A stretch of DNA of 39,502 nt, taken from the NCBI GenBank assembly GCA_047614005.1, contig JBLHIK010000003.1, positions 1 through 39,502 of the forward strand, written 5' to 3'. This document shows, piece by piece, positions 14,161-35,965 of the stretch. Both the position numbers and the translations under genes were made by a program. The notes below the pieces were generated by a model that saw only the letters and a program-made list of their open reading frames with translations, was not told where the DNA came from and did not search any database. The stretch's first letter is position 1, and every line of letters starts with the position of its first letter. The DNA comes from Flavobacteriaceae bacterium. GTDB taxonomy: Bacteria; Patescibacteriota; Minisyncoccia; Phycocordibacterales; UBA1006.

Positions 14161-14206
14161 GCAAAAGCAAACGACACAAAGGCTCTGCCTTTGTGTCGTG
14201 CTTTTG

Positions 14207-14277
14207 CGGGTCCACGAGGACTCGAACCTCGGACGTCGGTTTTGGAGACCGAAATTTTACCACTAAACTATAGACCC
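14207..14277 (-). tRNA. tRNA-Trp (CCA)
   Basis: GGGTCTATAGTTTAGTGGTAAAATTTCGGTCTCCAAAACCGACGTCCGAGGTTCGAGTCCTCGTGGACCCG folds as a cloverleaf. 3' CCA not encoded. Confidence 0.95.
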
Positions 14278-19689: not shown

Positions 19690-19767
19690 AGAAAATAAAG
19701 AACCCAAAGCATAGCTTTGGGTTCTTTATTTTAAAACAACAAAAAACACACTTAGGTGTCTTTTTTG

Positions 19768-19839
19768 AGGTACGGGCGGGATTCGAACCCGCGCATGTTG
19801 GTTTTGCAGACCAATGTGTTACCACTTCACCACCGTACC
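19768..19839 (-). tRNA. tRNA-Cys (GCA)
   Basis: GGTACGGTGGTGAAGTGGTAACACATTGGTCTGCAAAACCAACATGCGCGGGTTCGAATCCCGCCCGTACCT cloverleaf with U73 discriminator. Confidence 0.95.
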
Positions 19840-22421: not shown

Positions 22422-22469
22422 AAAAACATACAATCTAAACACTGTCGTATTTAAATTGTTGTTTTTATG

Positions 22470-22551
22470 TGCGTGAGAGAGGACTTGAACCTCCACACCT
22501 TGCGGCACCAGCTCCTAAGGCTGGCGTGTCTACCAATTTCACCACTCACGC
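22470..22551 (-). tRNA. tRNA-Leu (TAG)
   Basis: GCGTGAGTGGTGAAATTGGTAGACACGCCAGCCTTAGGAGCTGGTGCCGCAAGGTGTGGAGGTTCAAGTCCTCTCTCACGCA. Confidence 0.95.
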
Positions 22552-27366: not shown

Positions 27367-27440
27367 AAACTTTGAATATTTACCCAGAAGTCCAGTTTTG
27401 TTATTATTACAAAATTGGACTTTTTTTATATTTATTTTTT

Positions 27441-27578
27441 AATATATTATAGACTTGCACATATCCTTTTCATCGTGTATATTTGTTGAACATCTGCTTT
27501 CGGCTTGCCTTAAGTAGATGTACTGAAAAATGACTGCTTCGGCAGGCATTTTTCATTTTCGATAAAGACCAAAGCAAA
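27441..27578 (+). ncRNA. Promoter plus candidate ~70-130-nt small RNA, copy 1 of a 138-bp direct repeat
   Basis: TTGCAC-17bp-TATATT, then two hairpins (acatctgctt..aagtagatgt and tgaaaaatgactgc-ttcg-gcaggcatttttca). Near-identical copy at 28235..28372. Confidence 0.55.
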
Positions 27579-27642
27579 TAATCTTAATTAAAAAAGGCGC
27601 TCCTCACGGAGCGCCTTTTTTAATACGTATATTAGTTTACTA

Positions 27643-28128
27643 TTAAACCTCTACAGTAACACTTCCAGAAATAGTCATCTCACCATGTACAATCTCCTTA
27701 TGGTCATTCGTAGAGAGACGAACCTCTATCTTATGCTCTCCTTTTTCTAGACCTGTTAAATGGTACCATTCACCATAAATACGAGAGATTTTAACACCAT
27801 CTACATATATATGAGCATGACCTTCCCCTTCTTTATGTACACCTCCTGCATTTTCAGGTGCAAATATAAAGTTTTCTGTTGAGATGTTTATATTAAATCC
27901 ATTCACAGAATCTGAAGTAGCAATAATGTCTACTGATGGCTTACTATCGAGCATTGAAACATCAAAAACACCATGAACATGACTGTATCCATCGCTCATA
28001 TGAGCACCATCTGACATATGAACATTGTCATGCATGTCTTCTGGTGTATAACTATAAGGACTTACAATAAGAGCTCCTACAATACCTCCAAGAACAAAGA
28101 CACCTACTGCTAAAATATTTTTTTTCAT
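27643..28128 (-). CDS. Secreted or membrane-anchored His-rich putative metal-binding protein
   Basis: Signal/TM segment, HDNVHMSDGAHMSDGYSHVH linker, and EGHAHIYVDG...G.H.IEV.L.TNDH. Confidence 0.75.
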   Translation of the reverse strand: MKKNILAVGVFVLGGIVGALIVSPYSYTPEDMHDNVHMSDGAHMSDGYSHVHGVFDVSMLDSKPSVDIIATSDSVNGFNINISTENFIFAPENAGGVHKEGEGHAHIYVDGVKISRIYGEWYHLTGLEKGEHKIEVRLSTNDHKEIVHGEMTISGSVTVEV

Positions 28129-28234
28129 ATTAATTAAAATAATCTATTATAATGTTATATATTATAACATTATAAATAATATAAAAGTATAGGTATATCT
28201 TCTTTAATTTCTTCTATTTTGTAAAATATGGCAT

Positions 28235-28372
28235 AATATATTATAGACTTGCACATATCCCTTTCATCGTGTATATTTATTTTACATCTGCTTTCGGCTT
28301 GCCTTAAGTAGATGTACTGAAAAATGACTGCTTCGGCAGGCATTTTTCATTTTCGATAAAGACCAAAGCAAA
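28235..28372 (+). ncRNA. Promoter plus candidate small RNA, copy 2
   Basis: Repeat of 27441..27578 at offset 794, followed by a related terminator hairpin (28380..28410). Confidence 0.55.
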
Positions 28373-28453
28373 CAACCCTAAAAAGAGCGCTTCTCACGAA
28401 GCGCTCTTTTTGTATCCTTTCCCCCGTTCCCTCTAAAAATAAAATGTTTATAT

Positions 28454-28547
28454 TGGTGAGCCTTCTCGAGCTCGAACCAAATAAATTCGTTACAGGGTAA
28501 GGCTATTTTGAAGTACTTATGTATTATCATAACGACCCCTCTCGAGC
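28454..28547 (-). repeat. att-like site resembling a tRNA 3' end (copy 1)
   Basis: Minus strand GGTTCGAGCTCGAGAAGGCTCACCA plus a second gaccc(c/t)tctcgagc motif. Repeated at 29408..29505. Confidence 0.65.
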
Positions 28548-28581
28548 TGAGCAATAAGTGACAAAAGTGACCCATTTTCTT

Positions 28582-29340
28582 CTACTCATAGTTCCAAGTA
28601 GCAAGATTGAGACGAGTGAAGTCATAAAGCTTTTTCGATTCCAGATCATAGAAAGAGTTTTGATAAGGATTTTCTGACCAATCTAGATTAAAAGGGTTTA
28701 GTTGAAAAAGATACACCGTGGACTTAAGTGGTACTCCAGGATAACAAAACAGTATCCACTTCTGTCTATTTTCGATAAAGTCGTTCGGAAGTTGCACCTT
28801 GTTCTTAAGAAGTAAGTAGAACATAAGGATCTCTTCTAGGAAGAAGTTGACTTGATTTTCTCCTATATCTCGAGCAAACCTCTCACAGTCTTCTTGAATA
28901 TACCCCTGGAATGATTCGTCGTTATCGTATATCTTTTTTATTTCATCGAACTTAAGATTGAAATCTGAACTCCCGAGATACAACTGATTCCACACCATAT
29001 AATTGACTGCTTTTTGGATCTGGAACTCAATAGGGTTTTTCTGAAGAATTTTCTGGATACCATTCTTATGGTTAATCACAGAGTGCATAAATGAGCGCTT
29101 AAGTTCTGGAGCTGGCTTATCTGAATAAAGATACAAGAAGTCAGAATAGATAAAGTTAGCACCAATTGTAGGAGTTGAAACTTTTGATAGATTAAAAGTT
29201 CTCAGATGTTCAATACAATCTTTCACAGATTGTCCACCATGATCAAGCTTGTTCATCGATAATCCAAAAAGTAGGAGCCCCTCTTGTGCGGGGAGTTTAT
29301 TAATATCGAAGAAGGTATTTTCGGGGAGATGTGTATTCAT
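28582..29340 (-). CDS. Putative tRNA-dependent cyclodipeptide synthase (CDPS)-like protein
   Basis: ~250 aa with LLLFGLSMN near the N-terminus, then W, FFLEE and CYPG in the order of the CDPS catalytic Ser/Glu/Tyr motifs. Pattern recognition only. Confidence 0.5.
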   Translation of the reverse strand: MNTHLPENTFFDINKLPAQEGLLLFGLSMNKLDHGGQSVKDCIEHLRTFNLSKVSTPTIGANFIYSDFLYLYSDKPAPELKRSFMHSVINHKNGIQKILQKNPIEFQIQKAVNYMVWNQLYLGSSDFNLKFDEIKKIYDNDESFQGYIQEDCERFARDIGENQVNFFLEEILMFYLLLKNKVQLPNDFIENRQKWILFCYPGVPLKSTVYLFQLNPFNLDWSENPYQNSFYDLESKKLYDFTRLNLATWNYE

Positions 29341-29407
29341 TTGCACATAATTCTACCATACATCCTGAACACACCAACTTGTATACAAAATTTGTGAACA
29401 TTAGAAC

Positions 29408-29505
29408 TGGTGAGCCTTCTCGAGTTCGAACCAAGCAAAGTCATTGTGGTGTAAAGTTTTTTTTAGTTATTATATAGAAATTCAAAATGACCCTTCTCGA
29501 GCGCT
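29408..29505 (-). repeat. att-like site resembling a tRNA 3' end (copy 2)
   Basis: tggtgagccttctcgagttcgaaccaa matches 28454..28480 at 26/27. The cttctcgagcgct 13-mer is shared with 33665..33677. Confidence 0.65.
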
Positions 29506-29648
29506 GTTGGGTTTTCACTATAGGCGCCAATTGCTGTAATAGGGTTTTGCTCCTCTAGAAAAAACTTCTCCCGGACCACTTCAAAAGCCACCGCTGTGTC
29601 CTGTTGATTCATTTCGTGGAAAACCTTTATTTTCTCTTTCCATGTTTT

Positions 29649-31439
29649 TCATTGCTTTTTTATATTTTCTGTACCAAACCATTCAGTTATTTTAATCATT
29701 GCCGAATCTCCCATTTGAGAAAGAGCTAAAACAACTAAATTTTCTTTAGCCCTAGAACAAGAAACATAAAACAGATTTTTAGTTCGTAACTTCCTGTGTT
29801 CTTTGTCATCTGTGTCATTAAAGAATTTTTGGAAATCATATTTTGCAACCCAACTTGTATCATCAATTACAACCAAAACATTTCTATATTCTTCTCCTTT
29901 TGTTCCGTGCTTTGTAGAGTATGATGTTTGCTCTTGAATGTGTTTAAAAGCACAAATCATTTCATTATAATTGGTAAGCATTAATGTTTCATAGAATAGT
30001 TTATTTTTAGTTGCTCTTTTTAACTCTTCTTCATCACTAATAGTTGAGACATCTATAGCTATCTTTTCTAAAAATTTTTGTAATTTTCTAGAGGGAAGCG
30101 ATAACTTATTTTCTTGGCAAAAATTAAAAACATCTTGGATTGTTCCAGTCGTTCTTAAAGTTGTTAATTCTTTTAATTTATTTTCTATTTCTTGTTTGTC
30201 TGAATGTTTAGTTAGAGAGCTAAAAACACCTTGTTGTTTTAGATACTTTATAACTCTGTTATAATTTTTGTCCGCCCAAAAAGAAACTAAATGTTCAATT
30301 CCTGTTTCTCGTTCACTAGAGTTTTTTTTGTCTTTAGAACCAAAGAAGTAAGACGAAAAATGATTTTCTCTATTTAATAATTCAGTTTTAGGGTCATAAA
30401 ACCTTTTTGAATAAGTTTTATATAGATTTCCAAAACCTGCTCTTTCTGCAACTTTGCTATTTGCAATTATTAGAATCTTGTCATCACCTGATTCTGAAAA
30501 GTCCCAACCTTCTGCGTCTAATCTTGTAATAATACTGTCATAGTCTAAATCTTTTTTAGGTGCTATTCTCGCTCGATAAGGTGCACCTTTTTCTTTTGGA
30601 TTCCTTGAAGCATTTGTACAATTAATAAATTGAACGCTTCCATCAATACTTTCTTTACTTTCAGGTATTGTTTGAGTTATATTATCTCGAATGTTATTTA
30701 ATAGATTAACAACACTTTCGGAAGAACGATAATTGTCGTCCTTTGTCACAAGTTCAAGCTTGTTTGAATCAATATAAGGTTGTAATGAACCAATACCAGT
30801 GTCGTAAATTTTTTGATAAGAATCTCCATAGAAACCAACTAATAGTTTCGCTTTGTTTCTTTCAAGTAGATAACTTACAATCGCATCAACAGTTTCACTA
30901 GCAGTATCTTGATATTCATCTATAAATAAGTAAGGATATTTTTGGCCTAAAATATGAGTTAAGGATGTATAGTTTTTAAACATTCGTAAAGACAAAGTTA
31001 TTACATCATCATGATGAAGACTTCCTTGTTCAAAATCTCTATAACCACTATCATCATAAGTAACTTCTTTAATTCTATCTTTTAATCCAGTTTTGTATTT
31101 ATCTGGCTTATCAATAAGCATAGCTTCATTTAATAAATCCAATTGGATTATTAATTGTTTGTTGAATCTTTTGATGCAATCCCATAAAAATTCGTGAATG
31201 GTAGAGACAATGACTAAAGGATTATTTTCAAGCCTTTCAATAATTTCATTTTTTGCTACATTAGTATATGTAATACAAACAATTTTTTGATTGTTTAACT
31301 TGATACTTTCTCCTTTTGTTTCTAAAACGTGATTTATCGTTTGAATTAAAGTATATGTTTTTCCTGAACCTGCTCCAGCTTCAAGTACATAACTTTTATT
31401 TTCTTCTATATGTTCTATTATTTGTTCTATAGCTGTCAT
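29649..31439 (-). CDS. gajB: UvrD-like helicase, Gabija GajB-type
   Basis: VLEAGAGSGKT, CITYTNVA, STIH, FIDEYQD, GDSYQKIY, NYRS, TKHGTKGEEY and LFYVSCSRAK motifs. Starts 1 nt after the OLD nuclease stop codon. Confidence 0.8.
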   Translation of the reverse strand: MTAIEQIIEHIEENKSYVLEAGAGSGKTYTLIQTINHVLETKGESIKLNNQKIVCITYTNVAKNEIIERLENNPLVIVSTIHEFLWDCIKRFNKQLIIQLDLLNEAMLIDKPDKYKTGLKDRIKEVTYDDSGYRDFEQGSLHHDDVITLSLRMFKNYTSLTHILGQKYPYLFIDEYQDTASETVDAIVSYLLERNKAKLLVGFYGDSYQKIYDTGIGSLQPYIDSNKLELVTKDDNYRSSESVVNLLNNIRDNITQTIPESKESIDGSVQFINCTNASRNPKEKGAPYRARIAPKKDLDYDSIITRLDAEGWDFSESGDDKILIIANSKVAERAGFGNLYKTYSKRFYDPKTELLNRENHFSSYFFGSKDKKNSSERETGIEHLVSFWADKNYNRVIKYLKQQGVFSSLTKHSDKQEIENKLKELTTLRTTGTIQDVFNFCQENKLSLPSRKLQKFLEKIAIDVSTISDEEELKRATKNKLFYETLMLTNYNEMICAFKHIQEQTSYSTKHGTKGEEYRNVLVVIDDTSWVAKYDFQKFFNDTDDKEHRKLRTKNLFYVSCSRAKENLVVLALSQMGDSAMIKITEWFGTENIKKQ

Positions 31440-31440
31440 T

Positions 31441-33486
31441 CTAATCGTTTTTAGCTAACCAAATCAAACCTTCATTTATATATTCTGGAACTTTCCATTT
31501 GCCATATTTCTTTTCATCAAATGACATAATATCAAATGTGAATTCTGTTTTTTGTTTAGATGTAAACTCATCAGGTATTTCTTTAGAAATATCTTTGTTT
31601 TTTAGATACGAAAACTCATTTTTAATGACTAGATTTTCTTCTCCGTCCTCAATATGTTCAGATAAAAAAAACTCTTTATTTGTATTTATAAAAGCATCTT
31701 CAAAACTTCTTGCGTTAAAACCGTTTTCATTTGTTTGATAAGAGACACAGATATTATCCTTTATTTTTTCTTTAACTTTACAACTTGTTAACTCTGAAAT
31801 AGTTGTCTTACTTGGTAACCATTTTATTAAAGTATAGTTTGTAGTAAATTCGCCAACATCAACTTTACATTTTCTAGTTTTCTTTTTTTCTCCGTCTTGG
31901 TATTTTTGTGCAGAATCAATATCTGTTATTATTAATGTTCTAACATTAATAAACTCTAACATTTCTTTGAATGAATGTGCATAAGCTCCACCAACTTCAA
32001 GTATAGAAACATACTCATTGCATAATAAATTCGCAGATTTCTGTATCATTTGTGGTAAAAGCATACGTTCGGTTGTTCCTTCAACCAATATAACTTTATC
32101 AGCAAAAAATAAATCAGATTTATGAAGCGTTAAATATTGCCTTAAAAATCTAAAAGTTCGTTTATCATTTTTAATTTCTAAATTATTAAAATCTTGATTT
32201 GTTATTTTGAACCCAGTTATAGTTGGTAATCTATTAAAATACCTAATTCTATTAAACCCTTTTTCTGTGTCAATTCCTGATTCTGACAGAATATGTGAAG
32301 AATGTGTTGTGATAATTACTTGTATTTGTATATCAGTATCCTTTTTAGCGTCTTTTACGAGTTCTGAAACTTGACTGATAAAGACCTGTTGCATTTGAGG
32401 ATGCATATGAGCTTCGGGCTCTTCTATAAGCACTACAAGGAAATTTGATAGCTTTTCTTCTTTTGAGTTTTTAAACTTCTCAATAAAACTTGCTAACTCT
32501 AAAATCATATAAATTAGATTGCTATAACCAAGTCCATTATAACTTTCAGGTAAATCTATTTCATCTTGTTTGTAAAGATATTGGATGTTGTTTTTTATAA
32601 TTTTTTCAGAATCAAATTTTGAATCAATTATTATTGGTGGAATTGTAATTGGAGTTTTTGCTCCAAATTTTTTAAGTTTTGTTTGAATACTTTTAAGTAC
32701 TTTATTGTAGTTAATTTTTAAATCTTCTGATACTAATTTAAGAGCAGTTTCTAATTCAATTACATCTTTATGGTCTTTATCTCTTTGATTATAATAATTA
32801 GAAAACCCAAGAGATAAAGCATTGTTAGAATCACCTTTTGTGTCATCTAAAATTCTCATTGCTTTAATACTTTCAAAAAGTACTACTTTTTGAATTTTAG
32901 TTTTAAAGCTATCTTCGATTTTTCTATTAAAATCAGATTCTTTATCAATAGCATAGCAAACAGTTTCGTATAAAAAATTTATGTTTTTATGCAGATATTC
33001 TATTAATTCAATTGTTTTATCTTCTCTGTTTTCAAATGATTGAAATACCTTTAAAGTGTTTTTTGGTTCAAAAGAAATGCAAATTGTAGCATCATTTCTA
33101 GCATCCTCTAAATCAGTAATAAATTCACTAAGCTCAACTAATGATTCATTATCTGCTTTATTGTACTCGATTTCAAAATTGATTTTAATTTTTGGAACTT
33201 CAACTATTAATTGTTTTTCAAGTTCATTACGCTCTTCTTCTGAAATTCCTTTTTTCTTGGATTTTAAATATGTACTATGAACAGCTTTGAAAACAGCATA
33301 AGAACTTTGAGAAAAGTCCTCAAAAATAAATTTTCCATCAGTAGAAGTAGCCAATTTTATTGCTTCAAAAAAAGAAGTTTTTCCTGTGTTATTTTTTCCT
33401 ACAATTAGCGTTATATCGTCTTCTAAATTACAAATCACTTCCTCTAAAAGGCGAAAATTTTTAACTTCTATTTTTTTTATTTTCAT
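31441..33486 (-). CDS. gajA: OLD-family ATP-dependent endonuclease (ABC ATPase plus TOPRIM), Gabija GajA-type
   Basis: KNFR, VGKNNTGKTS, GLGYSN, IEEPEAHMHP, TTHSSHI, FFADKVILVEG..E and TDID motifs. Start at MKIKK, 6 nt after TATAAT. Confidence 0.82.
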   Translation of the reverse strand: MKIKKIEVKNFRLLEEVICNLEDDITLIVGKNNTGKTSFFEAIKLATSTDGKFIFEDFSQSSYAVFKAVHSTYLKSKKKGISEEERNELEKQLIVEVPKIKINFEIEYNKADNESLVELSEFITDLEDARNDATICISFEPKNTLKVFQSFENREDKTIELIEYLHKNINFLYETVCYAIDKESDFNRKIEDSFKTKIQKVVLFESIKAMRILDDTKGDSNNALSLGFSNYYNQRDKDHKDVIELETALKLVSEDLKINYNKVLKSIQTKLKKFGAKTPITIPPIIIDSKFDSEKIIKNNIQYLYKQDEIDLPESYNGLGYSNLIYMILELASFIEKFKNSKEEKLSNFLVVLIEEPEAHMHPQMQQVFISQVSELVKDAKKDTDIQIQVIITTHSSHILSESGIDTEKGFNRIRYFNRLPTITGFKITNQDFNNLEIKNDKRTFRFLRQYLTLHKSDLFFADKVILVEGTTERMLLPQMIQKSANLLCNEYVSILEVGGAYAHSFKEMLEFINVRTLIITDIDSAQKYQDGEKKKTRKCKVDVGEFTTNYTLIKWLPSKTTISELTSCKVKEKIKDNICVSYQTNENGFNARSFEDAFINTNKEFFLSEHIEDGEENLVIKNEFSYLKNKDISKEIPDEFTSKQKTEFTFDIMSFDEKKYGKWKVPEYINEGLIWLAKND

Positions 33487-33855
33487 ATCTCTATTATACA
33501 TCACAATAAAATATATTATAATAAAAAAACCTTTTTAATAAGTTTTTTTTATTTTTATGAAGTTTTCTGTAGTCTCAAAGAATCACTTGAACTCTCAACC
33601 TGTATGAGGTAAATAGTAATCAAACAAAAAAGAGCCCTCGTAGAAGTACTCTTTTTTTCTTATGCTTCTCGAGCGCTCACACTAGCGCTCTCTATTGTGA
33701 CACAAGTCACTAAATATAATTTTTTGCTTACGCTCAAATTCTACGTAAGTGCTCACAACCCCATCTCGCTGTTTTTCTTTTTAGTGAAAAGAAAAAAATA
33801 GCTCCGACTTCACAAAGCTAAAAAAGTAAAATAGTTTACTTTTTTTACGCTTTGT

Positions 33856-33927
33856 GACCCTACAGAGAATCGAACTCTGATTACCAGATTGAGAACCTGG
33901 TGTCCTAACCGTTAGACGATAGGGCCA
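33856..33927 (-). tRNA. tRNA-Glu (CTC); ends approximate to within 2 nt
   Basis: GGCCCTATCGTCTAACGGTTAGGACACCAGGTTCTCAATCTGGTAATCAGAGTTCGATTCTCTGTAGGGTCA. Confidence 0.93.
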
Positions 33928-34434
33928 ATTATTTATGTATTGTATTTAGATTGCTCTAGTCTTACAAGATAATTCTCAATTGAGAACCTAACCTATTTCA
34001 TCATGCTCATGACTTCGCATAGATGAAATTCCTTCGGAGCGGAGAAAATATAAAACTATTTATATTTTCTTCCTAACCGTTAGACGATAGGGCCAATTAT
34101 TTATGTATTGTATTTAGATTGCTCTAGTCTTACAAGATAATTCTCAATTGAGAACCTAACCTATTTCATCATGCTCATGACTTTGCATAAATGAAATTCC
34201 TTCGGAGCGGAGAAAATATAAAACTATTTATATTTTCTTCCTAACCGTTAGACGATAGGGCCAATTATTTATGTATTGTATTTAGATTGCTCTAGTCTTA
34301 CAAGATAATTCTCAATTGAGAACCTAACCTATTTCATCATGCTCATGACTTCGCATAAATGAAATTCCTTCGGAGCAGAGAAAATATAAAACTATTTATA
34401 TTTTCTTCCTAACCGTTAGACGATAGGGCCAATT
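33903..34434 (-). repeat. Tandem array of 168-bp units (three full plus a partial) containing tRNA-Glu 5' fragments
   Basis: tcctaaccgttagacgatagggccaatt starts at 33903, 34071, 34239 and 34407. Units differ by only a few SNPs. Confidence 0.95.
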
Positions 34435-34516
34435 GTATTTTATTATAAAGAAATGCAATATAAATACGATACCACTATACATTATTCTTCTGTAATTTAA
34501 AACACCTATATCTATT

Positions 34517-34591
34517 CTAGCTACGCTCAATCATCTTAATCTCTTCCCCATTCACGCCATACAATCCGTATACCATCTGATCGATTTCTTC
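34517..34591 (-). pseudogene. C-terminal remnant of a type IIG/Eco57I-like restriction-modification protein
   Basis: Minus-strand frame reads EEIDQMVYGLYGVNGEEIKMIERS*, matching the typical IDxxVYxLYGLTxEEIxxxE tail. An in-frame stop lies just upstream. Confidence 0.6.
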
Positions 34592-34727
34592 AATATCATA
34601 GGTTTTTGAGTTTACTATCTAACCCCAAACAATACTCATAAATGGATTGATAGTATTGAAAAAAAGAAAATTATATGAGTTTAATCTTCCATGAGGTGTT
34701 TTTTCTATGATCATAGGTTATAATACT
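34591..34727 (+). repeat. ~136-bp direct repeat ending in a TATAAT -10 box; copy at 35830..35965
   Basis: caatatcataggtttt...ctatgatcataggttataatact occurs at both positions. Confidence 0.9.
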
Positions 34728-34784
34728 ACCTGTACTAGCCATGACAATCACAGAAAAACTCACAATCATACAAACAATTTTTAC

Positions 34785-35282
34785 ATGATTACTTTTACAA
34801 AAAAAGAAAATTCTGATCAACAAGAATCAGAAAAAACTCACATTAAAACTAAAGCTCAAGAAGAAGCTGGAAATCTTGCAATATTAGACACAACAGTAAA
34901 AAAAACGGTGTCTGCTTTTCATGGGCTTATCGTCGCGATGATTATGTTATCCGTAGTTATATGGCTCTTTGTATACGTCTTCTGTTTTGTTGAGGATTCT
35001 TGCGAATCATTAGTAGCGATAGGTGGTGTATTTATGATTTTAGCTTTTTATCTCTCTTATATTGTAAATAAAGTAAAAAAGACCACCAACTACTTAGAAA
35101 TCAAAAAGAGTTTAAATACTCTCTTTTTAATTCTTATTCCTTTTTCTTTATTTATAAGTATGCTCATGATTGTGGGTTCAATATTAGGAATCATAATGTT
35201 TCTAACTTTTATTATGTTATCAATTCGTGCGTTTAAATTCTATAGAGCATTTAATTACGCAAAAAGAAATAATCTTATATAA
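34785..35282 (+). CDS. Four-TM hypothetical membrane protein, paralog 1
   Basis: MITFTKKENSDQQESEKTHIKTKAQ...AFNYAKRNNLI; tandem paralog of 35287..35784. Confidence 0.75.
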   Translation: MITFTKKENSDQQESEKTHIKTKAQEEAGNLAILDTTVKKTVSAFHGLIVAMIMLSVVIWLFVYVFCFVEDSCESLVAIGGVFMILAFYLSYIVNKVKKTTNYLEIKKSLNTLFLILIPFSLFISMLMIVGSILGIIMFLTFIMLSIRAFKFYRAFNYAKRNNLI

Positions 35283-35286
35283 AAAT

Positions 35287-35784
35287 ATGATTACTTTTGA
35301 AAAAGAAGAAAATTCTGATCAACAAGAATCAGAAAAAACTCACATTAAAACTAAAGCTCAGAAAGAAGCTGGAGATCTTGAAGCGCTAGATAAAATAATA
35401 AAAATAATAATATCTGTTTTTTATTGGCTTATTGCAACTATGATTGCACTAGCTATAATTATATTGTTTTTTTCATTTGTACTCTATTATTTTGATGAAT
35501 CTTATTCACGAGGAGTAATAGCAGGTGGTGCATTTATGATTTTAAGTTTTTATCTTTTTTATCTTACAAGTAAAGTAAAAAAGATCACCAACTACTTAGA
35601 AATCAGGCACAGACTGAATATTCTTTTTTTTATTTTTATTCCTTTTTCTTTTTTTATGTGTATTCTTATAGTAATGATTCCAATAGTAGGACTCATAATG
35701 TTTACAATATTTATTATACTACTAATTCATACGACCAAATTCTATAAAGCATTTAATTATGCAAAAAGAAATAATCTTATATAA
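35287..35784 (+). CDS. Four-TM hypothetical membrane protein, paralog 2
   Basis: MITFEKEENSDQQESEKTHIKTKAQ...AFNYAKRNNLI; 502-bp period relative to paralog 1. Confidence 0.75.
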   Translation: MITFEKEENSDQQESEKTHIKTKAQKEAGDLEALDKIIKIIISVFYWLIATMIALAIIILFFSFVLYYFDESYSRGVIAGGAFMILSFYLFYLTSKVKKITNYLEIRHRLNILFFIFIPFSFFMCILIVMIPIVGLIMFTIFIILLIHTTKFYKAFNYAKRNNLI

Positions 35785-35829: not shown

Positions 35830-35965
35830 CAATATCATAGGTTTTGGAGTGTACTATCTATCCCAAACAATACTCATAAATGGATTGATAGTATTGAAAA
35901 AAAGAAAATTATATGAGTTTAATCTTCCATGAGGTGTTTTTTCTATGATCATAGGTTATAATACT
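35830..35965 (+). repeat. Second copy of the 34591..34727 promoter repeat
   Basis: Direct sequence match. The -10 box sits 6 nt before the SOUL ATG. Confidence 0.9.

Follow-up and report, generated by a model that had tools for sequence, protein, structure and literature searches.

A Predicted Cyclodipeptide Synthase of a Divergent XYP-Type Family, Encoded in a Putative Cassette Stack behind tRNA-Glu in a Patescibacterial Genome

Organization of the Locus

The window, i.e., the whole stretch of 39,502 nucleotides analyzed here, is contig C3 of a patescibacterial genome of 598 kb (completeness 91%). Its minus strand carries an open reading frame that extends from an ATG at 29340 to a TAG at 28582; an alternative in-frame GTG at 29346 would add two residues, and the ATG is the start of the closest homologs. 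The encoded 252-residue protein contains, in this order, GLSMN (S28), W117, FFLEE (F166 and E170) and CYPG (Y200 and P201). These are the motifs and the order from which an earlier note, made from the letters alone, had proposed a cyclodipeptide synthase (CDPS), and the Tyr of YxxxE is indeed replaced by Phe. The genes gajB and gajA, and then tRNA-Glu(CTC), lie upstream, likewise on the minus strand; the Gabija neighbor named in the earlier note was confirmed by PADLOC as both GajB and GajA. In line with a further remark of that note, none of the window neighbors scanned was recognized as a tailoring enzyme. A promoter scan remained at chance level (five matches vs. 4.4). In run X1, possibly the source sample, a single contig covers both the CDPS gene and the end of gajB with zero differences. 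The features of the locus are as follows.

28445..28562, minus strand: downstream copy of the att-like boundary element
28582..29340, minus strand: predicted divergent XYP-type cyclodipeptide-synthase gene, 252 aa, GC 36.5% (genome 35.7%)
28738..28743, minus strand: Tyr200-Pro201, putative YP of the XYP subfamily (AlbC Y202), aligned with YPG of Rgry-CDPS
28831..28833, minus strand: Glu170, putative equivalent of AlbC E182
28843..28845, minus strand: Phe166, putative equivalent of AlbC Y178, naturally Phe
29257..29259, minus strand: Ser28, putative equivalent of AlbC S37 (aminoacyl acceptor), aligned with GISM of Rgry-CDPS
29400..29518, minus strand: upstream copy of the att-like boundary element, about 100 nt, between the gajAB and CDPS cassettes
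29649..31439, minus strand: gajB, Gabija helicase (PADLOC E = 6e-155), GC 29%, most likely a separate cassette
31441..33504, minus strand: gajA, Gabija OLD-type ATPase/nuclease (PADLOC E = 1e-171), GC 26.5%, most likely a separate cassette
33665..33701, minus strand: partial site that contains the core of the repeat and is 89% similar to the tRNA-Glu(TTC) gene of contig C7 over its 3′ end and flank
33854..33926, minus strand: tRNA-Glu(CTC), anchor of the cassette stack

A Family with the Predicted Fold of Cyclodipeptide Synthases

The protein has no real match in Pfam, NCBIfam or PADLOC, and a phmmer search against the PDB returned esterases only (E ≥ 0.17). A homolog search, by contrast, placed 342 of 637 candidates at E ≤ 0.001, so that the label “orphan” given in the earlier note holds for annotation and fails for homologs. 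The best 120 homologs are 62–88% identical to the protein, identity across family members spans 21–88%, 167 representatives match at 50% clustering, and the record titles name Patescibacteria or Parcubacteria. Relatives were found in none of the IMG/VR viral contigs, PLSDB plasmids and GenBank phages, and a phage- or plasmid-borne origin is thus unsupported in those collections. A search for family forms of at least 523 aa returned none, which is weak evidence. The Pfam CDPS model (PF16715) matched one of 66 distant members scanned, with E = 5e-4 and 20.2 bits against a cut-off of 27.

An AlphaFold2 model built from a 72-sequence alignment reached a pLDDT of 96.7 and a pTM of 0.93. In a VIA-wide structure search, which is independent of Foldseek and covered 48,161 chains, ranks 1–9 were all titled CDPS, one of them putative (Z 11.6–14.7, rmsd 3.1–4.0, 187–200 residues aligned), and TyrRS came next with Z 10.6. 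With Foldseek, every match listed at E ≤ 0.001 was a CDPS (44 matches counted); the best was 5OCD (E = 2.4e-6, TM 0.52), and the first synthetase appeared at rank 47. The solved CDPSs share only 10–19% identity with the model at TM-scores of 0.42–0.53. The family profile matched Rgry-CDPS (5MLP) with E = 1.5e-4 over positions 12–228, and the GISM and YPG motifs fall in register; for Fdum-CDPS (5OCD), E was 0.084. In the HMMER alignment to 5MLP, an insertion leaves the helix of YxxxE (YFLEE) out of register. A language-model search yielded neighbors at 0.96 and clusters that were 24–26% Pfam CDPS.

Tests of fold, profile and conservation agree, and both the CDPS identification and the structural comparison proposed in the earlier note (AlphaFold plus Foldseek) come out in favor of CDPSs as the best structural matches. 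It is very probable that the protein is a tRNA-dependent enzyme with the CDPS fold. The family is likely a new, divergent subfamily of XYP-type CDPSs that is invisible to Pfam, and the protein itself is probably active. A class Ic aminoacyl-tRNA synthetase of the TyrRS or TrpRS kind was also considered and rejected, since the protein is a single domain of 252 aa whose consensus lacks HIGH and KMSKS, tRNA-synt Pfam matches are absent, and synthetases rank below CDPSs structurally.

Some individual members deserve mention. Locus L009 is a tandem of two unrelated CDPSs, with the divergent homolog overlapped at its 3′ end by a canonical Pfam CDPS (L009:6743-7375, E = 2e-30); in a profile comparison, the canonical gene was related weakly to the family (probability 48%, 70 columns). 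Protein P0131 (525 aa) carries the family domain at its C-terminus behind a winged-helix-like N-terminal region, and has ILDD at the position of FLEE. Two homologs lie in bins labeled Nanoarchaeota and SR1 (L035 and L038), which suggests transfer among ultra-small lineages, or mis-binning.

Putative Catalytic Residues and Predicted Pocket

Four canonical CDPS residues have been defined, together with the XYP subfamily, which has a residue other than Asn at AlbC position 40 and the pair Y202-P203 (PMC11580168). S37 and Y202 are described as strictly conserved in active CDPSs, and Y178 and E182 as well conserved (PMC5935735). Conservation was counted in two sets, comprising 65 close and 72 diverse sequences. 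S28, directly after the model strand 21–27, is kept in 65/65 and 69/72 of these, respectively, E170 in 65/65 and 71/72, Y200 in 65/65 and 71/72, and P201 in 63/65 and 61/72. The serine, glutamate and tyrosine on whose conservation the earlier note had staked its reading are thus retained, and the secondary-structure positions of the catalytic residues in the AlphaFold2 model fit those of a CDPS. K31, at the position of AlbC 40, is K or R in 63 of the 72 diverse sequences, which, with Y200 and P201, places the family in the XYP type, as had been suggested. D67 is D in 61/65 close homologs. The family also has near-invariant residues of its own, namely Y65 (71/72), H91 (68/72) and E169 (71/72), and these could be marks of a different reaction.

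Position 166 is F in 59 of the 65 close sequences (Y in six) and in 69 of the 72 diverse ones (Y in two), so that the Tyr-to-Phe change pointed out in the earlier note is a property of the family. The equivalence of F166 and AlbC Y178 is assigned by motif reading, because HMMER left the YxxxE helix out of register with 5MLP. The missing hydroxyl of the Y178 equivalent might be taken to mean that the protein is a relic, catalytically dead or decaying, and a few metagenome homologs are indeed split over two frames (L102, L107, L118, L127, and L128). However, the frame studied here is intact, the X1 contig runs over it without differences, and the catalytic positions are kept across members that are only 21–88% identical; a relic is therefore highly improbable. 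ParcuCDPS Y167F still yields cHP, in a lower amount, and the ring is considered to outweigh the hydroxyl; three other XYP enzymes are cited as active with the same change (PMC7613923). Since the ParcuCDPS mutant remains productive, Phe166 is no argument against activity, and by analogy the replacement would mark a variant rather than a loss of function.

The positions of the P1 pocket were taken from PMC5816076 and give LGISWMFF for the protein. When 5MLP is read in this way, the result is LGVTWIII, reproducing the first seven letters of the published LGVTWIIV; in the supplement of PMC5816076, LGVTWIII belongs to the Rgry paralog and LGVTWIIV to CDPS 24 (cFF 54%, cFL 47%). The resemblance of LGISWMFF to the pocket of Rgry-CDPS leads to the prediction of a hydrophobic first substrate, and the first residue is probably of the Phe/Leu/Met type, as far as the pocket letters can tell.

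Boundary Elements and the Putative Cassette Stack

The gene is flanked by direct repeats of about 95 nt that are 75% identical (28454-28547 and 29408-29502). Their 13-nt core occurs three times in the window vs. 0.04 expected, and a third copy of the element is located on contig C7, near tRNA-Glu(TTC). With a sequence model made from seven copies, the element was detected in 29 of the 54 other genomes that represent the taxonomic family, at 1–6 copies each; among the 29 element loci, tRNA-Glu lies within 1.5 kb in six and tRNA-Gln in two. In L200, tRNA-Glu is followed by a gene for a large serine recombinase, encoded on the opposite strand, and then by cargo and the element. Recombinase genes are also present in L199 and L205, and a gene with Resolvase and Recombinase domains in L158, L200, and L205. 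The element bounds recombinase-bearing islands (L199, L200, and L205) as well as stacks at tRNA-Glu (L200, L202, and L203), and some stacks of cargo-element units are free of a recombinase (L201, L202, and L203). The window has the recombinase-free layout, in the order tRNA-Glu, gajAB, element, CDPS, element. A search of the 91%-complete genome for a serine recombinase was negative, a single tyrosine recombinase being encoded elsewhere, and a joint that skips the CDPS gene between the repeats was absent from four contig sets, which drop rare variants.

The att-like repeats seen in the earlier note thus turn out to be an element that recurs across its taxonomic family, along with recombinase genes and tRNA targets. 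They are read here as scars of att sites left by putative recombination, and the insertion of the CDPS cassette would have been driven by a recombinase. Since the repeats mark the boundaries of cassettes in tRNA-Glu stacks throughout the family, Gabija and the CDPS are most likely separate cassettes stacked behind the same tRNA gene.

Several simpler descriptions of the repeats were rejected. The cores are direct repeats with no significant hairpin (z −0.83 to +0.71), unlike integron attC sites. The repeats are not specific to the CDPS, because the model is absent from the other homolog loci (99 loci) except for the C7 control and a weak match in L043 (E = 0.0015). A plain duplication of a tRNA 3′ end does not fit either, as none of the 33 tRNAs found shares the 3′ end of the repeat.

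The CDPS-family gene itself is patchy, being present in four of 60 relatives and four of 400 genomes of the phylum. At 11 of 38 loci, a tRNA gene on the same strand is located no more than 500 nt upstream, as against 10 of 359 for other ORFs and 21 of 475 for the gene's own genome; in the metagenome set, 10 of 47 loci have such a tRNA, kin being not independent in these counts. Patchiness and tRNA proximity fit repeated horizontal insertion at tRNA hot spots. A link to one tRNA species was discarded, the upstream tRNAs being Ala, Ser, Lys, Met, Gln, Arg, Leu, and Cys.

Further repeats were observed in the window. A second direct-repeat pair of 148 nt (27440-27587 and 28234-28381; 95%) contains two hairpins (z −2.4) and encloses a His-rich gene of 161 aa (27643-28128) with no Pfam match above the cut-off; this gene forms another cassette, bounded by an element of a different kind. 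Upstream of tRNA-Glu(CTC), at 33903-34434, three tandem units of 168 nt are 99% identical, each ending with the first 24 nt of the tRNA gene, and the unit shows about 78% similarity to the sequence upstream of the C7 tRNA-Glu(TTC) gene; the units could be a real amplification or an assembly effect, X1 coverage being thin at 34248-34571. An exact direct repeat of 104 nt (34624-34727 and 35862-35965) encloses tandem paralogous membrane-protein genes (34707-35282 and 35227-35784) that are 77–81% alike. Finally, in the genome as a whole, the 3′ end of 11 of 33 tRNA genes recurs in inverted form about 45–80 nt downstream of the gene, compared with 0 of 33 upstream, and a long hairpin would form in each case; examples in the window are tRNA-Trp (14206-14277), tRNA-Cys (19767-19839), and tRNA-Leu (22469-22551).

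Neighborhood and the Question of Defense

Because gajAB is adjacent on the same strand, the product might be an anti-phage enzyme that acts with or beside Gabija, either by draining charged tRNA or by making a cyclodipeptide alarm signal, as the earlier note had proposed. The homolog loci available for comparison comprise 44 from genomes, 71 from metagenomes and a few from relatives, some of them redundant. A tblastn search of the GajA and GajB of the window against 122 homolog loci (894 kb) gave zero matches at E ≤ 1e-5. PADLOC screening covered the 150 nearest of 392 neighbors (43 genome loci) plus 147 neighbors at 65 further loci; in these 108 loci, plausible defense neighbors numbered only two, namely PDC-S13 at L085 and a Fic protein at L042. 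Pfam identifies the remaining PADLOC hits as housekeeping look-alikes (DEAD and UvrD helicases, ClpB, a class-V aminotransferase, PolA, ABC ATPases, and methyltransferases), and a ShosA match beside topA would be DprA. The closest homologs lie beside tRNA-Lys (88% identity in L060-L062, 84% in L063), with polA and a holA-like gene upstream in the case of L060-L062, and the boundary repeats are absent at L060-L063.

The two modules also part company within the locus. The boundary element lies between them, and the host-like GC content of the CDPS gene (36.5%) differs from that of gajB (29%) and gajA (26.5%). In runs X2, X5, and X9, near-identical gajB contigs stop matching at 29645 and continue with 33–41 non-aligning letters, i.e., they diverge beyond that point; contig depth over the body of the CDPS gene is zero in X2 and X5 with traces in X9, which proves nothing alone.

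The cargo of the element gives some weight to the other side. Clear PADLOC matches were found at six of the 29 element loci (three CBASS, two AriA/OLD-type ATPases, and one PDC-M50A), with weak matches at two more, and a defense role therefore keeps a small prior, although most of the element cargo consists of non-defense genes. CBASS and OLD/AriA-type ATPases were seen as element cargo in relatives at L150, L151, L166, L140, and L163. None of the papers listed in a mostly open-access literature search connects CDPSs with phage defense. Taken with the absence of Gabija from all 122 loci and the two plausible defense neighbors in 108, the defense enrichment that the earlier note had suggested scoring does not emerge, and an anti-phage enzyme is improbable. 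Adjacency to Gabija within a cassette stack is thus weak evidence of a defense role, and the unannotated cargo of the element may be worth screening for defense.

A SET-Domain Partner

A SET methyltransferase gene is located directly downstream on the same strand at nine of the 96 loci with 500 nt of room (L028, L031, L032, L054, L088, L090, L114, L115, and L126), which are all the SET-clade genes in the loci, and two family members are fused to SET (P0172 and P0182). The SET-linked members fall in three or four distinct regions of a quick tree with many long branches. Apart from SET, the neighbors across homolog loci are mostly unrelated. When longer proteins were searched with the SET alignment, seven of the best 13 were fusions to Pfam-positive CDPSs, and the fusion CDPSs show the GxSL, YxxxE, and YPG motifs. 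A canonical-type CDPS with a C-terminal SET domain was seen in P0272-P0275, P0277, P0279, P0282, and P0284 (seven Pfam-positive; P0279 by eye). That canonical CDPSs have the same SET partner speaks for a role in biosynthesis.

Among 400 genomes of the class, a SET match occurs in 48, and only one is at clade level (E = 9e-66; the next 1e-35). The CDPS family was found at none of 30 SET loci examined, including L169 (G549:C12), where a SET gene of the partner clade was seen clustered with an aminotransferase-like gene and a methyltransferase-like gene (both by eye) and one divergent gene of 462 aa. BurB is a precedent for small-molecule methylation by a SET enzyme (PMC12542666); its substrate is free Met. 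A specifically BurB-like partner was nevertheless rejected, as histone methyltransferases score better (3.6e-15 vs. 2e-9 for BurB). Methyltransferase partners of other kinds are named in PMC5767969 and PMC2922099, and a mostly open-access literature search found no SET-domain tailoring enzyme for cyclodipeptides. No SET domain was found in the genome of the present CDPS gene, and the product there would thus be unmodified.

Proposed Reaction

By analogy with AlbC, S28 would accept the first aminoacyl group, with E170 and the aromatic ring of F166 keeping it in place. Reaction with the second aminoacyl-tRNA would then give a dipeptidyl-enzyme, and Y200 would help cyclization. D67 is the likely partner of S28, like D58 of ParcuCDPS, which supports the catalytic serine of that enzyme (PMC7613923).

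The same fold might also serve another outcome, namely a tRNA-dependent aminoacyl transferase that forms a linear dipeptide, transfers the residue to a small molecule or protein, or hydrolyzes aminoacyl-tRNA. Such an enzyme would accord with an identity of 10–19% to all characterized CDPSs, with the family's own Y65, H91, and E169 and its fixed Tyr-to-Phe change, and with the recurrence of peptidase S51 (L007, L013, and L101) and D-Ala-D-Ala dipeptidase (L005 and L037) among the neighbors. However, these peptidase neighbors are few and come in part from related genomes, the cyclization tyrosine Y200, reported as strictly conserved in active CDPSs (PMC5935735), is present in 71/72 sequences, and the SET partner is common to canonical CDPSs. 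A transferase of this kind is accordingly rather unlikely.

We therefore favor, with a probability of roughly two in three, a stand-alone enzyme that would make a cyclodipeptide from two aminoacyl-tRNAs and would be carried in its own cassette, independently of Gabija. That the protein produces a cyclodipeptide at all is, again by analogy, probable. As a caution, 10 of 42 CDPSs tested in E. coli were inactive, and many of the inactive XYP CDPSs came from fungi, cyanobacteria or metagenomes (Gondry et al., PMC5816076). It is tempting to speculate further, though only tentatively, that the product is a hydrophobic cyclodipeptide that is modified in part of the family by a dedicated SET methyltransferase of the histone type, e.g., by S-methylation of a Met side chain, as with BurB on free Met, and that the gene travels as a single-gene cassette among episymbionts, which depend on imported amino acids and would nonetheless spend charged tRNA on a diffusible compound, possibly one that signals to host or kin.

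Comparison with Known Systems

The arrangement of the locus has its closest counterparts in islands of large serine recombinases at tRNA genes, which likewise have direct-repeat sites between cargo units of one or two genes behind a tRNA; the full islands carry a recombinase, whereas none was found in the present genome. Integron cassette arrays are comparable in that cargo units are separated by direct repeats, but attC-like hairpins have no match here. Gabija (GajA/GajB), the immediate neighbor in the window, is unlinked at 122 homolog loci.

To our knowledge, ultra-small bacteria have been thought nearly devoid of secondary metabolism. CDPSs known in this phylum include ParcuCDPS and the CPR entries of the 2018 catalog (PMC5816076). 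A mostly open-access literature search (Patescibacteria/CPR, SET domain, phage defense) returned neither this CDPS family nor the SET pairing nor a defense role.

Among the characterized enzymes, the best profile match is Rgry-CDPS (CDPS 24 of Rickettsiella grylli, 5MLP), an XYP enzyme that makes cFF and cFL. It resembles the model (Z 12.5, rmsd 3.3, 193 residues aligned) and shares GxSM, YPG and, by prediction, a similarly hydrophobic P1 pocket, but its identity is 16–18%, and it has Tyr in YFLEE where the new family has Phe. Unlike Rgry-CDPS, the new family escapes the Pfam CDPS model, and CDPS mining profiles miss it entirely, leaving at least 342 sequence clusters hidden in ultra-small bacteria. 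Nbra-CDPS (5MLQ), Fdum-CDPS (5OCD), and a putative CDPS of Porphyromonas gingivalis (9GUN) are structurally closer (Z 14.1–14.7, rmsd 3.1–3.3), with only 11–15% identity; the products reported for Nbra-CDPS (Glu/Ala) and Fdum-CDPS (Gly/Gly) (PMC12945691) are not predicted for the new family.

ParcuCDPS (CDPS 90 of Parcubacteria bacterium RAAC4_OD1_1, 7QB8) is an active enzyme of the same phylum that makes cHP and cHE. It shares the fold (Z 11.8) and presumably a Ser/Asp dyad, with D58 there and D67 here, but it belongs to another lineage (14–19% identity) and is missed by the family profile. Its pocket, GAYAWELY, is polar and accommodates His, whereas that predicted for the new protein is hydrophobic. 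Its active Y167F mutant mimics the natural Phe of the new family, in which the Tyr-to-Phe site consequently offers a ready test of the role of the catalytic tyrosine.
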